Shown piece by piece: positions 23,828-42,732 of a stretch of 64,000 nucleotides of DNA; the first letter of the stretch is position 1; each line of letters opens with the position of its first letter. The translations under genes and the position numbers were made by a program. The notes beneath the pieces were generated by a model. It was not told where the DNA came from and did not search any database. It saw only the letters and a program-made list of their open reading frames with translations. The DNA is from Clostridia bacterium. GTDB lineage: Bacteria > Bacillota > Clostridia > TANB77 > CAG-465. The DNA lies in contig JAFVCY010000010.1 in the NCBI GenBank assembly GCA_017478805.1, positions 484-64,483 of the forward strand, written 5' to 3'.

Positions 23828-24337
23828 TTATACTGCATGCGGTGTAGCTATATTCATATACTTTGAAAGCTGACCAAACTCGTCCTTTTTTATTTGAACC
23901 AATGCAAAATGTACATCAGGTACAGCGATTAAAGTCTCAACACACTTCTTTCCAACGTAGTTCGCTACATAAAAGAGCCGTGCTATTCTTTTAATCCTAT
24001 AGCAATCATACTTTTTTACTCTTTTTCCACTTTTAACTCTTACTATTTTAGGTTTAGAATCAAAGTGATTAGTAGATAAAATGCTTTCAAGAAGGTAAAG
24101 TTCAGAATTTGTTACTTTAAATCTAACATATTCTTTAGCTTTTTTACCGTTTTTATTTTTCAAATTTACCAAATATGTTATCTCATCCATTATCATTTCA
24201 TATTTTGATACAATCTCATCTATGAAATCAAGAAGTTCTTCCTTTTCAGCTTTTGAAAGCCGGCATACTCTTCTTCGCTTTTCTTCTTCCTCCATTTCTT
24301 TAATTATTAAATTGGTTTCATAGCTAAAAGTAGCCAT
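23828..24337 (-). CDS. Hypothetical protein.
   Basis: It is a 169-aa ORF whose family I could not recognise. Confidence 0.45.
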   Translation of the reverse strand: MATFSYETNLIIKEMEEEEKRRRVCRLSKAEKEELLDFIDEIVSKYEMIMDEITYLVNLKNKNGKKAKEYVRFKVTNSELYLLESILSTNHFDSKPKIVRVKSGKRVKKYDCYRIKRIARLFYVANYVGKKCVETLIAVPDVHFALVQIKKDEFGQLSKYMNIATPHAV

Positions 24338-24463: not shown

Positions 24464-25117
24464 TTATTTTTCCTCTGCTGCATTTAATCTAGTTAGCTCT
24501 TCCTTTTTCTCTATTTTATTTATAACAAATATTGATACTCTTACTATTATAGCGCCGATATATGCCCCTATAATTACATCAGTAAAATTATGAACCCCTA
24601 AATATACTCTAGATATAGGAGTAAGCACCATTACAAGCCATACAAGTATACTAACAGGTATACTTACTTTTTTGTTATAGATATATTTTCTAGTGCAGTA
24701 TAGCATAGTGCCATAAAAAGCAACTCCTATCATTGAATGTGCACTTGGAAAACTATACCCCGATTCATCTATTAAAAAGAAATCAATTGGTCTTTCTCTT
24801 TGAAAGATATGTTTTAGTGCAAAATTAAGTAAAAAAGCAATAGCTGTATTTATAAATATATGTATAGATACCGACTTATCTTTTGCAAGCAAAGATATAA
24901 TAATGAATATTATTGCCATTGGAATTGGTGATAATATAAGTGATATTATATACATTATGTCCTTTAATATATTGTAGTCAAAATTTGTTCTTACAAATGT
25001 AAGTATTTTCACATCAATAGCATCAACTTTATCTATATAAATTACTCCTAACGTTACACTAATTACTAATACTAATATCAGTATTATAAGTTCTATCTTT
25101 GAAACATTTCTTGTCAT
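24464..25117 (-). CDS. PAP2-family phosphatase (BcrC/PgpB-like).
   Basis: It contains the motifs SFPSAHS and SRVYLGVHNFTDV. Confidence 0.8.
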   Translation of the reverse strand: MTRNVSKIELIILILVLVISVTLGVIYIDKVDAIDVKILTFVRTNFDYNILKDIMYIISLILSPIPMAIIFIIISLLAKDKSVSIHIFINTAIAFLLNFALKHIFQRERPIDFFLIDESGYSFPSAHSMIGVAFYGTMLYCTRKYIYNKKVSIPVSILVWLVMVLTPISRVYLGVHNFTDVIIGAYIGAIIVRVSIFVINKIEKKEELTRLNAAEEK

Positions 25118-25330
25118 ATTTCTTCCCCTCTAAACCTAATAATTATTTCCTCAATTATACAATTTTTTTTATATTATTTCAATAATAATATTAACTTTTA
25201 TTGTTTTATGTATATATCTAATCAATTACTAAACTGCTCTTATGCAATTTATTTTTTTCTATATTCACTTAAATACCATTATCTAAAAATGCTATATATT
25301 TTTTAACAGATAATTTCAAGTGCTAATTTT

Positions 25331-25359
25331 CTTTATTAATTTGAATAGTTAGCACATTT
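25331..25359 (+). promoter_or_regulatory. Sigma-A promoter TTGAAT-17-TATAAT driving the structured RNA.
   Basis: The sequence reads ttgaatagttagcacatttatgatataat. Confidence 0.5.
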
Positions 25360-25365
25360 ATGATA

Positions 25366-25695
25366 TAATATTTATTAGTGGTGCATTATTCTAGTTGTTA
25401 TTTAATATTATGAGGGTGGGGCTAAAAATCCACTAAAAGGCACATCGATGAAGTTCTGTATAATTGCGCATTACGCCCAGTTTTGCGCAGCTGTATGGAG
25501 TAAGGCTTTCGGGCTGGATATAACGGCATATATACCTTTGTCCCTAGAGTCGCGGAGACTTATAATTTATTAAATTTTAAGTATAACCTATACTTAAAGT
25601 GCCAAGACACTTTGTGTAGCGTAGCCTGTCTTGAGTGAAAGTAGCGGGATTTATCGTGTAAAATTAAATATTTAAGTGGCCACTTAATATTTAAT
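25366..25695 (+). ncRNA. Unassigned structured RNA of about 330 nt with a GC-rich core (25411-25660), ending in a long hairpin.
   Basis: It is a roughly 45% GC island in 27% GC DNA. No ORF of 60 aa or more is present. Internal stems include gcgca/tgcgc and caagaca/tgtcttg. A long imperfect palindrome around the central aagtggccactt lies at the 3' end. Confidence 0.4.
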
Positions 25696-25973
25696 TTTGG
25701 TAATGAAATTACTTTTGCAACAAAGACTAGTAATATTTAAAATACATTAAGGAAAACTTCTAGAATGTATGCTATATTTAGCATGAGTTATTAAGGATTA
25801 AGGTACGGAATTAAGTGGCGATCTAGTTTCTATGCTGGTGACACATAGATTTTTTTCTTAAATGGAAACGGCCAAATAGTAATATTGGGTGAAAAAAAGA
25901 GAAATTCTACTAGACCTAAACCGTAAAATTTACTTAATAACTTACCATTTTTTTATTATATAGGAGATTTTTA

Positions 25974-26555
25974 ATGAAACAAAGAAAAGAAAGAAAACAA
26001 AATAATAAAAAGAAAATTAAACCCTCGATACTTAGATGGTTTATAACAATAACTATTGCCACTTTCGTGCTTTCGCTATTTTTTAGCTATATATCAACTG
26101 TAGCAATAAATGATATACCTCTTGTATTTGCAATTATTTTGCTTCTGCTTGTTATTTTTATAGGTATATTTTTTGATATAATTGCAGTTGCTGTAACTGT
26201 TGCAGATGAAGCAAATTTTCATGCAAAAGCCACAAAGAAAGTTGAAGGTTCAAAAAAATCTATTCATCTTATAAAGAACGCACCAAAAGTATCTAACGTG
26301 TGCGCTGATGTAATAGGAGACATGTGTGGTGTTCTTTCTGGTAGTATAAGTGCAATAATTGCTATTAAAATAACCTCTTCTTTGAACTTAGATTTTAATA
26401 TTCAAATATTTATTAGTGCTTTTGTTGCATCACTTACAGTAGGTGGAAAAGCAATAGGGAAAGAAATTGCAAATGCAAACTCTGTAAAAATTGTACATGT
26501 TGTTGGTAAATTTTTACATTTTTTTGAAAGGAAAAAAAATACCCATCATAACTAA
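25974..26555 (+). CDS. Hypothetical membrane protein.
   Basis: A GGAG RBS lies upstream and the product has multiple TM segments. Confidence 0.55.
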   Translation: MKQRKERKQNNKKKIKPSILRWFITITIATFVLSLFFSYISTVAINDIPLVFAIILLLLVIFIGIFFDIIAVAVTVADEANFHAKATKKVEGSKKSIHLIKNAPKVSNVCADVIGDMCGVLSGSISAIIAIKITSSLNLDFNIQIFISAFVASLTVGGKAIGKEIANANSVKIVHVVGKFLHFFERKKNTHHN

Positions 26556-26578
26556 TTAGTAGTTATAATGGGTAATTT

Positions 26579-27430
26579 TTATCTAACAAGAAAAAAGTAT
26601 ATAAGTACTATTATTCCAAGTACAATTCTGTACCATCCAAACACTTTAAAATCGTGTTTTTTAATATAGCTCATTAAAAATTTTATTACAATAATTGAAA
26701 CTGCAAATGCAACAAACATACCTACTAGTAATATAGCAAGTTCACTTGATGTAAATGCAAAACCAAACTTAACTATTTTTAGAAGTGATGCTCCAAGCAT
26801 AACGGGCACTGCTAAAAAGAAAGTAAACTCTGCTGCTACATCTCTTGAAACTCCGATAAGAAGTGCTCCAAGTATCGTTGCACCTGACCTAGATGTTCCT
26901 GGGAACATTGCAGCGAGTAGTTGAAATAACCCTATTGCAAAAGCTGTTTTATAACTAATCTCTGAAATGCTTGTAACTTTAGGATTTCTACCACTATTAA
27001 TTTTTTCTACTATTAAGAATCCTATACCAAACACAATTAACGCTATTGCAACAGATGGTGCGTTATAGAACCAGCTATCGAACTTTTCATCAAGTCCTAG
27101 TACTACCATTATAATAGCTGGCAGACATGCAACAATTATCTTTAGCCACATTATCCAAGAATCTTTTTTGAACCATGACAAAACTCCACTTTCCTTTATT
27201 GGAATTTTATTATTTTTCTTTCCAAATGGCCAAAGCTTATTCCAAAATAGTAATATTACTGCAAGAATTGCTCCAAGCTGAATTACAACTAAAAACATAT
27301 CCCAAAATTCTTCTGTTACATTTAGTTTCATAAAGTTTTCAAGAAGTATCATATGTCCTGTACTACTTATTGGAAGCCACTCCGTTATTCCTTCCACTAT
27401 ACCAAATAATGCTGATTTTAATAATTCCAT
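26579..27430 (-). CDS. uppP: Undecaprenyl-diphosphatase.
   Basis: The sequence EGITEWLPISSTGHMIL matches the BacA family. Confidence 0.9.
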   Translation of the reverse strand: MELLKSALFGIVEGITEWLPISSTGHMILLENFMKLNVTEEFWDMFLVVIQLGAILAVILLFWNKLWPFGKKNNKIPIKESGVLSWFKKDSWIMWLKIIVACLPAIIMVVLGLDEKFDSWFYNAPSVAIALIVFGIGFLIVEKINSGRNPKVTSISEISYKTAFAIGLFQLLAAMFPGTSRSGATILGALLIGVSRDVAAEFTFFLAVPVMLGASLLKIVKFGFAFTSSELAILLVGMFVAFAVSIIVIKFLMSYIKKHDFKVFGWYRIVLGIIVLIYFFLVR

Positions 27431-27539
27431 TTTCTCCCCCCTAACAGACTACATTGTACCACATAATTATACAAAAGTTAATAGAAAAAACAAAAATAGT
27501 AATAATATATTTAATTATATTACTACTACTAGATAATTA

Positions 27540-28340
27540 TTATACATTTATAACTTTACTTTCTATTCTTAGTCTATCTGCTATCATTGCTATAAATTCT
27601 GAATTTGTAGGTTTACCTTTATTTGAATTTACAGTATATCCAAATATCTTGTCATGAATTTCTATTTGTCCTCTATTCCATGCTACTTCTATTGCATGTC
27701 TAATTGCCCTTTCAATTCTAGATGGCGTTGTATCAAACTGCAAAGCAAGTTTTGGATAAAGTACTTTTGTTACTGAATTAATTACATCTTCACTTTCTAC
27801 TGCCATGATTATGGCTTGTCTTACATATTGATATCCTTTTATGTGTGCTGGAACACCTATATCATGTATTGCAGCAGTTACTCTTGATTCGAGTGTAGTT
27901 TTATCTATCTCTCTTTTTCCTACAACAGCTGACTGAACAATTTTTAAGTCACCTATTTTTCTTTCAGCTGTAAGTTCAATTACTCTATCTACCAGCTTCT
28001 TTATATCAAAAGGCTTTACTACATAATACATAGCTCCCATTTCAATTGCTGTCTGTGTTATTCTCTCCTGTCCAATTGAAGACATTACCACTATAAGTGG
28101 CATTTTATAATTCTTTCTTTTACCTAGATCTTCAAGAACGTTTAAGCCATCTTTTTCGGGCATAACTATATCTAGAAGTATAATATCCGGCATGTACTCA
28201 TCTATTAATTTTTCTGCATTTCTTCCATCATAATCGTAACATACTACTTCAAGTTCATCTTTTGTGTTAACATAGTCTTTTAAAATTTCTAAAAAATCTC
28301 TATTGTCATCTAAAATCATGACTTTTTTCTTTTCTAACAT
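27540..28340 (-). CDS. spo0A: Sporulation master regulator Spo0A. The ATG is at 28340; the ORF track extends to the GTG at 28355.
   Basis: It has a receiver domain and the Spo0A C-domain ([20 protein letters not shown]...[21 protein letters not shown]...[15 protein letters not shown]). A GGAGG RBS precedes the start. Confidence 0.95.
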
Positions 28341-28379
28341 TTTAATTACCTCCACATGCTTTTTTTAAGCAACAATGAT

Positions 28380-28408
28380 ATTATACTCATCTGCTTTACA
28401 AATTTCAA
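28380..28408 (-). promoter_or_regulatory. Sigma-A-type promoter TTGAAA-17-TATAAT for spo0A.
   Basis: On the minus strand the sequence reads ttgaaatttgtaaagcagatgagtataat. Confidence 0.5.
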
Positions 28409-28439
28409 GATGTATTGTGGTATTTTTTTGGTCTAGTTT

Positions 28440-28456
28440 TGTCGAAAAATGTCGTA
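28440..28456 (+). promoter_or_regulatory. Tandem 0A boxes TGTCGAA and TGTCGTA, 10 bp apart, upstream of spo0A.
   Basis: The sequence reads tgtcgaaaaatgtcgta. Confidence 0.55.
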
Positions 28457-28568
28457 CAATGTTTTACATAATTCAAATTATGCCAAGAAAATACAGAAAT
28501 TTTTAACAAAATTTATGATTTACTGAAGTTTTTTAACAGAAAATGTTACATAATGCCAGGATAAAATA

Positions 28569-29435
28569 TTATATTCCTGGCATTCCTTCTCTATATTGTC
28601 CTCTAGTTTGCACTCCTCCAATACCATTTATTCCTTCTCTAGTATTTGATATAATACTTGCAAGTGGTATAAAGCGGTCAACTGGAGTATACGCTATTGA
28701 TTCTGCCACTATTATTGGGTCGAGCATATCTATTAAAACTCTCTTTGGTGCAGATGCAAAATTTGCTCCTGCAGAAATTAATGCTTCATAATAACTCTGA
28801 CAAGCTCCTGCAAATATTACTAAGTTATCTAAGTTATGTTCATATTTTCTTGCTTCTATTACTGCTCTTACAAAATACTTTGAATTTCTGTAATTATTTA
28901 TATCATACATGTCATTTTTTCTTCTAAAAAATGCGTCATGCCCTGTTAGTATAAGTATATTAGGCCTTATTTGCTGAAGTAGATTATATACATATTTATA
29001 CTGTTCTTGCTCTGCAATATTGTATACATACGCAGTAAGACCCATCCTTCTATAATTTTCTTTACACTTTTCTGTATATTCAGCATCACCATCAATATGT
29101 AAAATGATTCCTGGTTTTTTTAGTATTTTTTCTTTTGTATAGATAAGTGGACTAGTATAATTTTCATTTCTCAAGTTAAATGTTCTATGTACATGGCTAA
29201 AGCATCTATCTAACCTTACATTTCTTGAGTTTTCAAAATTTTTCATACTAGTATTAAGCTCGCTTTCTGATATATGCACTAAATCATTAATATTACTATC
29301 CGCAGAAATTCTGACAGTTACCCCTTGAAGGTCAGCAATTGTACCGTTTATATTTACTATTTTAAAGATTACATCCATATTATATGATTTTCTAGCTACT
29401 ATATCTCCTACCATAAAACTATCCATAATAAGCAC
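28569..29435 (-). CDS. yabG: Sporulation-specific protease YabG (peptidase U57).
   Basis: The N-terminus GDIVARKSYNMDVIFKIVNI and the segments ...PGIILHIDGD...ILTGHDAF...VIFAGACQSYYEALI...GANFASAP match the YabG family. Confidence 0.7.
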   Translation of the reverse strand: MLIMDSFMVGDIVARKSYNMDVIFKIVNINGTIADLQGVTVRISADSNINDLVHISESELNTSMKNFENSRNVRLDRCFSHVHRTFNLRNENYTSPLIYTKEKILKKPGIILHIDGDAEYTEKCKENYRRMGLTAYVYNIAEQEQYKYVYNLLQQIRPNILILTGHDAFFRRKNDMYDINNYRNSKYFVRAVIEARKYEHNLDNLVIFAGACQSYYEALISAGANFASAPKRVLIDMLDPIIVAESIAYTPVDRFIPLASIISNTREGINGIGGVQTRGQYREGMPGI

Positions 29436-39633: not shown

Positions 39634-39921
39634 TTATAATGATTCAGCACTTGTGCAAAGTGAGTGTTTTACTCTATCTTCTACTTCTGCTCTTTTTGCA
39701 TTATTAAATCTATCTACAGTTCCTACTAAATAACCAGTAATTCTTCTTATTCTTTCAAAAGGAACATCCTCACCAAATGAATATGACATATCAACATAAT
39801 CATTATCAACTGTAAGTGTTAAGTTCTCAATTTGTTTATCTGGAAATTTACTTTCCAAATACTCAACATATCCTTTTATCTCTTCTTCACCAAGTGTTCC
39901 ATTTAAAACCTCTATTCTCAT
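39634..39921 (-). CDS. Hypothetical small protein between nrdD and nrdG.
   Basis: It is a 95-aa ORF. Confidence 0.45.
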   Translation of the reverse strand: MRIEVLNGTLGEEEIKGYVEYLESKFPDKQIENLTLTVDNDYVDMSYSFGEDVPFERIRRITGYLVGTVDRFNNAKRAEVEDRVKHSLCTSAESL

Positions 39922-39947: not shown

Positions 39948-42236
39948 TTAATTAAAACAACACTCATAAGTTGTTTTTATACCAAATCCAGCACTAACTG
40001 GTCTTTTTATTCTTTCACTTCCACCTTCTACATGTGTATGTTCATGTCTTCCACATTTAGGACATACATCTGCAATTATTCCAGTATAACCACATATTGG
40101 GTCTCTATCTACTGGATGGTTAACACTTCCGTAACCAATATTATTTTCTTTCATACATCTTATAACCTGCTCAAACGCCTCTAAATTTTTTGTTGGATCT
40201 CCATCAAGTTCAACATAACTTATATGTCCACCATTTGTAAGTGCATGATATGGAGCCTCTATTTTTATCTTATCAAAAGCATTTATTTTATAATATACTG
40301 GAACGTGGAAAGAGTTTGTGTAATACTCTCTATCTGTAACTCCAGGTATTCTGCCAAATAACTTTTGGTCCATTTTAACAAATCTTCCAGATAACCCTTC
40401 AGCTGGTGTAGCAATAAGCGAATAATTAAATTTAGTTTCTCTTGCCTCTTTATCTACTCTTTCTCTCATATGAGATACTATTTTTAAACCTAACTCTCTT
40501 GCTTCTTCAGACTCTCCATGATGTTTTCCAATTAAAGCAACTAAAGTTTCTGCAAGACCTATAAATCCAACTGTTAAAGTTCCATGTTTTAAAACTTCTC
40601 CAACCTCATCTTCATAAGATAATTTTTCTGAATCCATCCATACATGCTGACCCATTAAAAATGGATAATTCTTAACTTTTTTCTTTGCTTGAATTCTATA
40701 TCTAAACATTAATTGTTCTATAACAAGATCTAGTTTTTCATCTAACATTTCAAAGAATTTATTTATATCCCCATGAGCCATTATTCCAAGTCTTGGAAGA
40801 TTTATAGATGTAAAACTTAAATTTCCTCTTCCTGTTACAATTTCACGTGTTGGGTCATATACATTTGCTACAACTCTTGTTCTACATCCCATATATGCAA
40901 CTTCAGTTCTATAATCTCCAGGCTTGTAATACTGAAGATTAAATGGCGAATCTATAAATGAGAAGTTAGGAAATAATCTTTTAGCTGAAACTTTACATGC
41001 AAGCTTGAATATATCATAATTAGGCTCTCCCGGATTATAATTTATCCCTTCTTTGATTTTTAGTATTTGTATTGGGAATATTGGTGTTTCACCATTTCCA
41101 AGTCCAGCATCAGTTGTTTTTAAAAGTTCAAGCATAACCATTCTTCCCTCTGGAGTAGTATCTAATCCATAGTTTATTGAAGAAAATGGTACTTGTGCTC
41201 CAGCTCTTGAGTGCATTGTATTTAGATTATGTACAAATCCTTCCATTGCTTGATATGTTGCTTTTCTTACTTCTTTTTCTGTATATTTAACTGTAAATTC
41301 TTGTATTTTTTTAACTAATTTTTCACTAAATTTTTCACCTAAAACTTTTGCTTCTTCTTCTAAATAGCCATTTGTATTTTCTAGAGTTGGTAGTAAATTA
41401 CATGTATCTTTAATTGTCTGTCTTAATTCTTCTACACATTGAGAAGCATCTGACATATCAACTAAAAGTTCTAAAGCTTTAGTTAAATTTTCATAGTATG
41501 ACCTAACATATGATTTTTTTACTCCTAAAGCCATAGCATATTCAAAATTAGGAATACTTTGACCTCCATGTTGATCGTTTTGATTTGACTGAATTGCAAT
41601 AGCAGCTAAAGCCGCATATGAACCTATACTTTGTGGTTCTCTTAAATGTCCCTCTCCTGTTGAAAATCCTCCATCAAATAGCTTTATTAAATCAATTTGT
41701 GTACATGTAGTTGTAAGTGTTAAGAAGTCTAAATCGTGTATGTGTATATCTCCATTTTTATGAGCTTCTGCATGTCTTTTATCTAGTACAAACATCTGGT
41801 AGAATTTTTTAGCTCCTTCACTACCGTATTTAAGCATTGTTCCCATTGCAGTATCTGCATTAACATTTGCATTTTCTCTTTTAACATCACTTTCTTTAGC
41901 ATCTGAAAAAGTAAGTTGCTCATAAGTTTTCATTATGTCTGAATTCATTTCTCTTTTTTGATTTCTTTCAGCTCTATATAATATATAGGCTTTTGCTGTA
42001 CTTGCATGGCCATTTTCAATTAAAATCTTTTCAACGGCATCTTGTACTTGTTCAACTGTAGGTACTTTTGATGAGCATGTTGCATCTAAATACTCACACA
42101 CTTTAAAAGCAAGCTGTTCAGCTGTTTCAAAGTCATGCCCTCCTACAGATTTGGCAGATTTATATATTGCATTTGATATTTTATCTATGTTAAATGCTAC
42201 TTCTCTACCATCTCTCTTGATTATCTTTGTAATCAT
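39948..42236 (-). CDS. nrdD: Anaerobic ribonucleoside-triphosphate reductase, class III. The start is at the ATG at 42236.
   Basis: It has an ATP-cone (MITKIIKRDGREVAFNIDKISNAIY) and a C-terminal Zn/Gly-radical region (CPKCGRHEH...). A GGAGTGG RBS precedes the start. Confidence 0.9.
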   Translation of the reverse strand: MITKIIKRDGREVAFNIDKISNAIYKSAKSVGGHDFETAEQLAFKVCEYLDATCSSKVPTVEQVQDAVEKILIENGHASTAKAYILYRAERNQKREMNSDIMKTYEQLTFSDAKESDVKRENANVNADTAMGTMLKYGSEGAKKFYQMFVLDKRHAEAHKNGDIHIHDLDFLTLTTTCTQIDLIKLFDGGFSTGEGHLREPQSIGSYAALAAIAIQSNQNDQHGGQSIPNFEYAMALGVKKSYVRSYYENLTKALELLVDMSDASQCVEELRQTIKDTCNLLPTLENTNGYLEEEAKVLGEKFSEKLVKKIQEFTVKYTEKEVRKATYQAMEGFVHNLNTMHSRAGAQVPFSSINYGLDTTPEGRMVMLELLKTTDAGLGNGETPIFPIQILKIKEGINYNPGEPNYDIFKLACKVSAKRLFPNFSFIDSPFNLQYYKPGDYRTEVAYMGCRTRVVANVYDPTREIVTGRGNLSFTSINLPRLGIMAHGDINKFFEMLDEKLDLVIEQLMFRYRIQAKKKVKNYPFLMGQHVWMDSEKLSYEDEVGEVLKHGTLTVGFIGLAETLVALIGKHHGESEEARELGLKIVSHMRERVDKEARETKFNYSLIATPAEGLSGRFVKMDQKLFGRIPGVTDREYYTNSFHVPVYYKINAFDKIKIEAPYHALTNGGHISYVELDGDPTKNLEAFEQVIRCMKENNIGYGSVNHPVDRDPICGYTGIIADVCPKCGRHEHTHVEGGSERIKRPVSAGFGIKTTYECCFN

Positions 42237-42270
42237 AAAACTACCACTCCTTGTATTTGACTGCCAAGTT

Positions 42271-42290
42271 AAATACAATATATTGTATTT
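42271..42290. promoter_or_regulatory. NrdR box, a perfect 20-bp palindrome.
   Basis: The sequence is aaatacaatatattgtattt, which fits the consensus acaCwAtATaTwGtgt. Confidence 0.5.
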
Positions 42291-42732
42291 AACTTGCATA
42301 AAAATTATAACATAGCAGTGCAAAGTAGTCAATGAATATGATATTCATTTTTTAAAATGTAATATAACTGTAACTTTAATCTTTTTACTTATGTTAAATA
42401 TATCTAAAGAATATCTATATTTTAGTAAAAATCGACATTTTATTTGTTTACTTTACACTACATAAAAAATGCAATTTTATGAAAACTAGCAAATTTTAAT
42501 ACTACTATATCTTGTATATGGTTACATAATTAATATACAAGATAGCAATTAAGAAGTAAAAAAGCATAATAAAGGTATATCATTTTACATAACTTAACAA
42601 ATAAAATAATTTATGGTATAATAATAGTGTATTTATTAAGTTATCACAATCGCAAGTGCGTAGAGTGAGTCTATCTAAAAGCACATTTGCTATTGTGAAA
42701 AAATTTTTAGTTCTTTGAAGGAGGACAAAATT

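Follow-up and report, generated by a model that had tools for sequence, protein, structure and literature searches.

Positions 25362 to 25964 on the forward strand of the window (the whole stretch of 64,000 nucleotides that was analysed) carry, as we hold with near certainty, a full-length OLE RNA gene with its obligate partner gene oapA (25974-26555) directly downstream. OLE (ornate, large, extremophilic) RNA is a structured bacterial RNA of approximately 600 nt. The window was scanned with the covariance models of all 4,227 Rfam families, and RF01071 (OLE) was the sole gathering-level match across the 64 kb (25362-25964 (+), 371.5 bits, E = 1.4e-105, gathering score 50). The alignment covers model positions 1-616 of 616 and is not truncated, and we take its extent as that of the gene. 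No evidence was counted against the identification. The OLE RNA family is already known, and the copy found here is an intact and ordinary form of it.

A preliminary description of this DNA had singled out the interval 25331-25695, which comprises the promoter and roughly the 5' 55% of the OLE RNA. Its view of the island as a gene for a structured non-coding RNA, preceded by its own promoter, was borne out by the Rfam match (E = 1.4e-105) and by the covariation controls reported below. It had also regarded the RNA as so far unassignable and possibly novel, after a comparison by eye with a list of families from which OLE was missing. The Rfam scan that it proposed as a check, naming a significant match to a known family as the outcome that would speak against novelty, returned RF01071 at full length. 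As it had stated, the island holds no open reading frame of 60 aa or more: none of even 50 aa was found in 25118-25973 on either strand.

Genomic loci that encode relatives of the protein made downstream of the RNA were retrieved, 29 in all. In the four with the closest oapA homologues (L001, L002, L003, and L013), full-length OLE RNAs scoring 342-447 bits lie immediately before the gene on its upstream side. The proteins of these four loci share 40-76% identity with the window OapA, and their RNAs share 54-83% with the window RNA. A consensus structure was predicted from an alignment of the window RNA with these four, a small sample of five sequences from about three lineages, and it contained 177 pairs in 26 helices. 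Standard pairs occupied 92.2% of the cells vs. 37-44% when the partners were slid by 1-3 columns, and changes on both sides were seen in 79 of the 177 pairs vs. 10-21 in the slid versions. The observed pairing and compensation values were reached in none of 500 shuffles. The covariation check on homologues that the preliminary description had called for was positive.

The long-range helices were recovered with covariation, all on the forward strand: the closing helix P1 (25376-25382 with 25944-25950), P2 (25383-25394 with 25760-25768), and P3/P3.1 (25396-25410 with 25733-25746), in which 5 of 12 pairs showed compensatory changes. Because P1, P2, and P3 connect the 5' leader to positions far beyond the island first described, the RNA must extend past 25698. 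Instead of the approximately 330 nt first proposed, it measures about 575-600 nt and continues to about 25950-25964; the mature, P1-closed OLE RNA likely spans ~25376-25950, as judged from the sequence. The distance of ~280 nt to the next start codon had been given almost exactly (276 nt), but these nucleotides are not a spacer; they form the 3' domain of the same RNA. With a GC content of 32% the RNA is very AT-rich. A value of ~45% GC had been ascribed to the island and was not reproduced: 25331-25695 measured 34.2%, the richest 261-nt core (25400-25660) 39.8%, and the window 28.3%. Since 7% of all 365-nt segments of the window match or exceed 34.2% GC, the composition is unremarkable, and GC content was not used as support for the RNA.

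An independent metagenome scaffold (L030, ENA ERZ28654966) matched the window at 99.85% identity across 6.6 kb. Within OLE it differs from the window at 25641 (G to A, in P9.1), 25671 (T to A, in P9.3), and 25887 (G to T, in the P14.1-like hairpin). Each of these differences would break a pair and none of the three is compensated, so no structural information is gained from them; they are strain variation or assembly error.

Domain 1 (P3 to P9, 25396-25746 (+)) is closed by P3/P3.1 and follows the published domain definition, in which P3 is proposed to cross the membrane (PMC12265935). This domain is the part that had been perceived as a GC-richer island. Its P4 hairpin, GGUGG-GGCUAAAAAU-CCACU (25415-25434 (+), model positions 54-73), was 100% paired in the five-species alignment, with 2 compensatory pairs, and it presents the conserved A-rich loop that has been described as dimer contact B1 (PMC12286853, PMC12265935). 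The J4a/5 block GCACAUCGAUGAAGUU (25440-25455 (+)) agrees with the Rfam consensus at every position and hardly varies among the five species. In Halalkalibacterium halodurans, J4a/5 forms most of the OapC-bound k-turn (PMC9723947, PMC12286853); in the window the block is by its sequence a candidate k-turn strand, and the partner strand is disputed, being either J5/6 or J6/7 (PMC12286853, PMC9723947).

The P9 arm (P9, P9.1, P9.2, and P9.3; 25629-25726 (+)) was delimited by the Rfam alignment and displayed compensatory changes. Its P9.3 stem (25660-25698 (+)) is an inverted repeat with 13 perfect outer pairs and 4 inner pairs around a central GGCC. This L9.3 GGCC (25678-25681) is invariant in the five species, and the arms differ completely between lineages. 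Cryo-EM of the Clostridium acetobutylicum OLE RNA has identified L9.3 as a symmetric intermolecular kissing loop, bridge B3 of the RNA homodimer, and the loop covaries among the palindromes GGCC, GAUC, and AGCU (PMC12286853). By analogy, the GGCC of the window is the predicted kissing-loop contact of the dimer. P9.3 is the palindrome that had been placed at the end of the RNA: the palindrome is real, but it is internal, and the alignment runs on to 25964.

In the 3' part, a second and weaker hairpin had also been described correctly, and we identify it as P13, UCUAUG[C]UG-GUGA-CACAUAGA (25829-25849 (+)). All 7 of its pairs showed compensatory changes. It is capped by a GNRA tetraloop (GUGA, 25838-25841) and has a single bulge, C25835, two pairs below the loop; this register (bulge C25835, U, G, GUGA) equals that of H. 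halodurans U498, U499-G500, and G501-A504. The primary OapB site is a GNRA-capped P13 with a precisely placed single-nucleotide bulge (PMC7936274), and the sequence gives the P13 of the window the geometry predicted for OapB binding. The P14.1-like hairpin (25871-25890 (+)) carries a second GNRA tetraloop (GUAA, 25879-25882); a secondary, weak OapB site has been described (PMC7936274).

A promoter scan placed the ole-oapA promoter, which is of the sigma-70 type, at 25341-25369 (+), with the -35 element TTGAAT (25341-25346), a 17-nt spacer, and a TG-extended -10 element TATAAT (25364-25369), together matching 10 of 12 consensus positions. This is the TTGAAT-17-TATAAT promoter that had been noted earlier. 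The same arrangement, TTGAAT-17-TGtTATAAT, precedes the OLE RNA of L001, with a different spacer sequence. We infer a sigma-A-type promoter with transcription starting at ~25376-25378, ~7 nt past the -10 element and just before the conserved GUGGUGCA. A terminator scan of 25100-26100 detected no terminator-like site, hence none between OLE and oapA, and a ribosome-binding site (AGGAGA, 25962-25967 (+)) lies 6 nt before the oapA ATG. Because no terminator separates the two, OLE and oapA are probably co-transcribed, and the RNA is then not free-standing, contrary to what had been proposed.

Two further sites were observed in this transcript. A run of seven T (25948-25954) directly follows the P1 closing strand on its 3' side; the Rfam consensus likewise ends in a U-tract, and the run is not a classical hairpin terminator. 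At 26540-26574, a 15-bp hairpin with a T-run was scored on the reverse strand as the terminator of uppP. It overlaps the final codons of the convergent oapA (the stop codon ends at 26555) and may act as a two-way terminator that also serves the ole-oapA transcript.

Lying on the same strand as oapA and directly upstream of it, with no terminator between, the RNA is physically the 5' leader of the oapA message, and it could on that ground be read as a cis-regulatory leader (a riboswitch or attenuator) of oapA and not as a functional RNA itself. We consider this very improbable. No expression platform was recognised and no terminator/antiterminator pair was found in 25100-26100; the ribosome-binding site at 25962-25967 lies outside all supported helices; and the Rfam scan gave no match to any riboswitch family, in agreement with the preliminary description, which had also argued against a riboswitch. 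RNAs of the OLE family are documented as stable and plentiful in the cell; OLE is bound by OapA, OapB, and OapC, and the phenotypes depend on the RNA itself (PMC12265935, PMC9723947). The canonical position of OLE, in mid-operon behind ispA, is at odds with a leader. The other alternative, a novel free-standing sRNA of ~330 nt (25376-25698) that begins at the promoter found here and ends at the long palindrome, which resembles a terminator stem and is followed by TTTT (25695-25698), can practically be dismissed, as the OLE model aligns continuously through the palindrome to 25964, P1, P2, and P3 pair the leader with 25733-25768 and 25944-25950 with covariation, and the palindrome is AT-rich, negative in the terminator scan, and centred on the GGCC of the conserved dimerisation loop. 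The palindrome was also rejected as an intrinsic terminator within the full-length OLE RNA, since the terminator scan was negative and the Rfam alignment extends beyond the stem on either side.

The gene directly downstream, oapA (25974-26555 (+)), encodes OLE-associated protein A (193 aa) and was assigned by homology, motif, and hydropathy. A simple Kyte-Doolittle scan revealed four hydrophobic segments (residues ~19-41, 48-66, 113-131, and 143-161). The DxxxD motif is DVIGD at residues 112-116, and the surrounding CADVIGDM[C/S]G was kept in 28 of 28 aligned OapA homologues. The N-terminus is basic, with 9 Lys/Arg in residues 1-20. Against the Pfam CNNM family (PF01595) the protein scored 19 bits (E = 0.0012), below the threshold of 28.4, and its homologues scored 23-30 bits. 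Published hallmarks of OapA are a DxxxD motif not found in CNNM domains, four transmembrane helices, a basic cluster, and weak CNNM similarity (PMC11332333, PMC12265935), and the CNNM score of the window protein fits the published score distribution (PMC11332333). OapA thus resembles the CNNM transporters MpfA, CorB, and CorC in that its transmembrane region weakly matches PF01595, as published for OapA, and differs from them in having the DxxxD motif, four and not three transmembrane helices, and no CBS/CorC domains. No PDB sequence match to OapA was obtained.

To place this gene pair among other loci, metagenomes were scanned with a conserved OLE core pattern, yielding 80 loci, 65 of which had enough downstream sequence. 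The start of an oapA homologue lay within 300 nt of OLE in 51 of these 65 loci and within ~500 nt in ~62. Three loci (L052, L055, and L092) had the OLE core pattern with no oapA homologue directly downstream; in L052 a homologue was found 2.2 kb away, and in L055 and L092 there was none within 1.1-1.3 kb.

The reverse situation was observed among the 29 loci retrieved with the protein. In 25 of them (L004-L012 and L014-L029, e.g. L004:3097-4591 and L020:3083-4570), which derive from uncultured Clostridia and Christensenella-like genomes and have the DxxxD motif intact, Rfam detected no gathering-level OLE within ~4 kb on each side of the oapA homologue. A permissive Rfam search of eight of the 25 at E up to 0.1 found no hidden or variant OLE. 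In ~24 of the 29 loci only 18-70 nt separate the gene from a polyprenyl-synthetase (ispA-type) gene ahead of it, a gap too small to accommodate OLE. An ORF-gap analysis of the RNA-less loci was uninformative at higher GC, and searching by exact match to two conserved OLE blocks proved overly strict, as this also missed the confirmed OLE RNAs of L001-L003 and L013. Gaps at the 3' end of RNA-less loci were considered as OLE candidates and rejected; they are the start of recN. Some of the RNA-less loci encode proteins that closely resemble their L002 and L003 counterparts, the genes of which have OLE upstream. Either OLE is located elsewhere in these genomes, or OapA occurs there without OLE; the latter, if true, would contradict the reported near-perfect co-occurrence of the two.

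OapB is a KOW (small beta-barrel) protein and OapC is YbxF, of the L7Ae family. Pfam revealed no OapB- or OapC-like gene among 10 small ORFs scanned in the 64-kb window; such genes are normally unlinked to ole. Among OLE-bearing species, oapB is present in about 60% and oapC in about 45% (PMC11332333). Given the intact P13 site and J4a/5 block, we would expect the genome to encode both proteins.

A working model of the locus can be drawn largely by analogy with characterized systems. The promoter at 25341-25369 would start one transcript carrying OLE and oapA, from which OLE may later be trimmed, as in H. halodurans, where OLE is processed from a polycistronic transcript. The two-domain RNA would dimerise via contacts of P4, P5.1/P6.1, and P9.3. 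OapA is reported to bind OLE RNA cooperatively as a dimer, and OapA dimers would here bind the RNA and tether it to the cell membrane; P3 may pass through the bilayer, with one RNA domain on either side. OapB would bind P13 and OapC the k-turn, and bS21 would also bind OLE. When H. halodurans loses the particle, it becomes sensitive to cold, to poor carbon sources, to short-chain alcohols, and to Mg2+ above 2 mM; by the same analogy the ribonucleoprotein would help the host of the window to withstand these stresses, Mg2+ excess included. As OapA is distantly related to the CNNM/MpfA Mg2+ transporters, the leading idea is that the OLE particle may control divalent-cation flux.

The window RNA shares the full P1 to P15 architecture and all highly conserved blocks with the OLE RNAs of H. 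halodurans, C. acetobutylicum, and C. botulinum. In common with typical OLE loci it has the A-rich L4, the J4a/5 strand, the GGCC L9.3, P13 with its GNRA loop and bulge, the second GNRA loop, oapA directly downstream, and a low-GC endospore-forming Bacillota host. The window encodes Spo0A, YabG, and SpoIIID, which identifies the host as an endospore-forming member of the Bacillota, and the closest relative (L001) is an uncultured Clostridiaceae genome. To our knowledge OLE is confined to the phylum Bacillota, and its hosts are typically anaerobes or extremophiles. Unlike typical OLE, the window copy has its own promoter, sits between PAP2 and uppP near spo0A, is only 32% GC, and has a P7-region stem shortened by ~22 nt relative to the Rfam consensus, with the deletions falling at model positions 209-232.

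Variant OLE RNAs have been described, variant 1 in TANB77 and variant 2 in RF39 (Fernando and Breaker 2024, PMC11332333), and the single shortened P7-region stem of the window RNA is a feature in common with them. In contrast to variant 1, in which P8, a long P9, and the complete P13 OapB site are often missing, the window RNA retains all three, and in contrast to variant 2 it retains the P7 and P8 regions that are wholly missing there. Having kept P8, its long P9, and the OapB site, the RNA is in our view a full-length OLE and none of the published reduced variants. GOLLD, ROOL, and the raiA motif are also large structured non-coding RNAs, with sequence and structure unrelated to OLE, and the Rfam scan gave no match to any of them in the 64-kb window; GOLLD and ROOL also form homo-oligomers (PMC12286853).

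The flanks of the RNA gene were as first described, a divergent PAP2 gene (24464-25117 (-), Pfam PAP2 E = 1e-17) on one side and a membrane-protein gene, oapA, from 25974 on the other. In both the window and L001 the gene order is PAP2 (-), promoter-OLE-oapA (+), uppP/bacA (-), spo0A (-), and yabG (-), and gene-order comparison delimits a conserved PAP2-to-yabG block at 24464-29435 in the window and 2499-7776 in L001. The UppP assignment is firm (NCBIfam equivalog, 375.6 bits), and the PAP2 protein was placed to family level only. The typical OLE cluster is ispA-ole-oapA-dxs...recN, a frequent association and not a criterion of membership. The canonical ispA-ole-oapA order was found in L013 and in at least 25 of 53 metagenomic loci, and a UppP or PAP2 homologue in none of the 80 metagenomic OLE loci; the PAP2/uppP context is common only to the window and L001. 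No ispA or recN homologue is present in the 64-kb window, thus no canonical operon lies elsewhere in it. Because the ispA...recN operon is not in the window, a relocation can be inferred only from the other loci; by that comparison, ole-oapA appears to have left the ispA-dxs cluster of isoprenoid synthesis in the Clostridiaceae lineage of the window and L001.

Other open reading frames of the window deserve brief mention. Adjoining the PAP2 gene, a 169-aa ORF (23828-24337 (-)) matched neither Pfam nor NCBIfam; L030 carries it too, and tblastn gave no match in L001. Farther away, a 95-aa ORF (39634-39921 (-)) matched only the last ~30 positions of the Pfam anaerobic ribonucleotide reductase family (the glycyl-radical C-terminus). 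A 794-aa ORF (39948-42332 (-)) is situated just upstream of it, and the two may be parts of one nrdD that has been split or frameshifted.

Undecaprenyl-diphosphate phosphatases occur among the PAP2-family enzymes as well as among the UppP enzymes. It is conceivable, though we think it unlikely, that the placement of a separate ole-oapA unit between two unrelated genes of this type signals a functional connection with C55 lipid-carrier recycling. The placement may be a rearrangement accident in one small clade. In the literature that was searched, no paper mentions OLE RNA together with undecaprenyl. Should the placement be functional, the OLE particle would be tied to C55 lipid-carrier recycling for cell-wall synthesis, and this would give concrete support to the proposal that a membrane-spanning OLE RNA senses the state of the envelope.

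The locus also serves as a calibration case: a reader with the sequence alone rightly sensed a large structured RNA, perceived only the GC-richer 5' domain of it, and put no name to it; one Rfam search names the family. For the family itself, the locus adds one more OLE-oapA pair, from an uncultured and very AT-rich member of the Clostridiaceae. That every published functional element is intact at 32% GC mildly reinforces the view that these elements are under selection. Taken with the classical ispA/dxs linkage, the PAP2/uppP context puts OLE once again beside polyprenyl-lipid metabolism, and the atypical neighbourhood is a minor lead on the biochemical function of the OLE particle.
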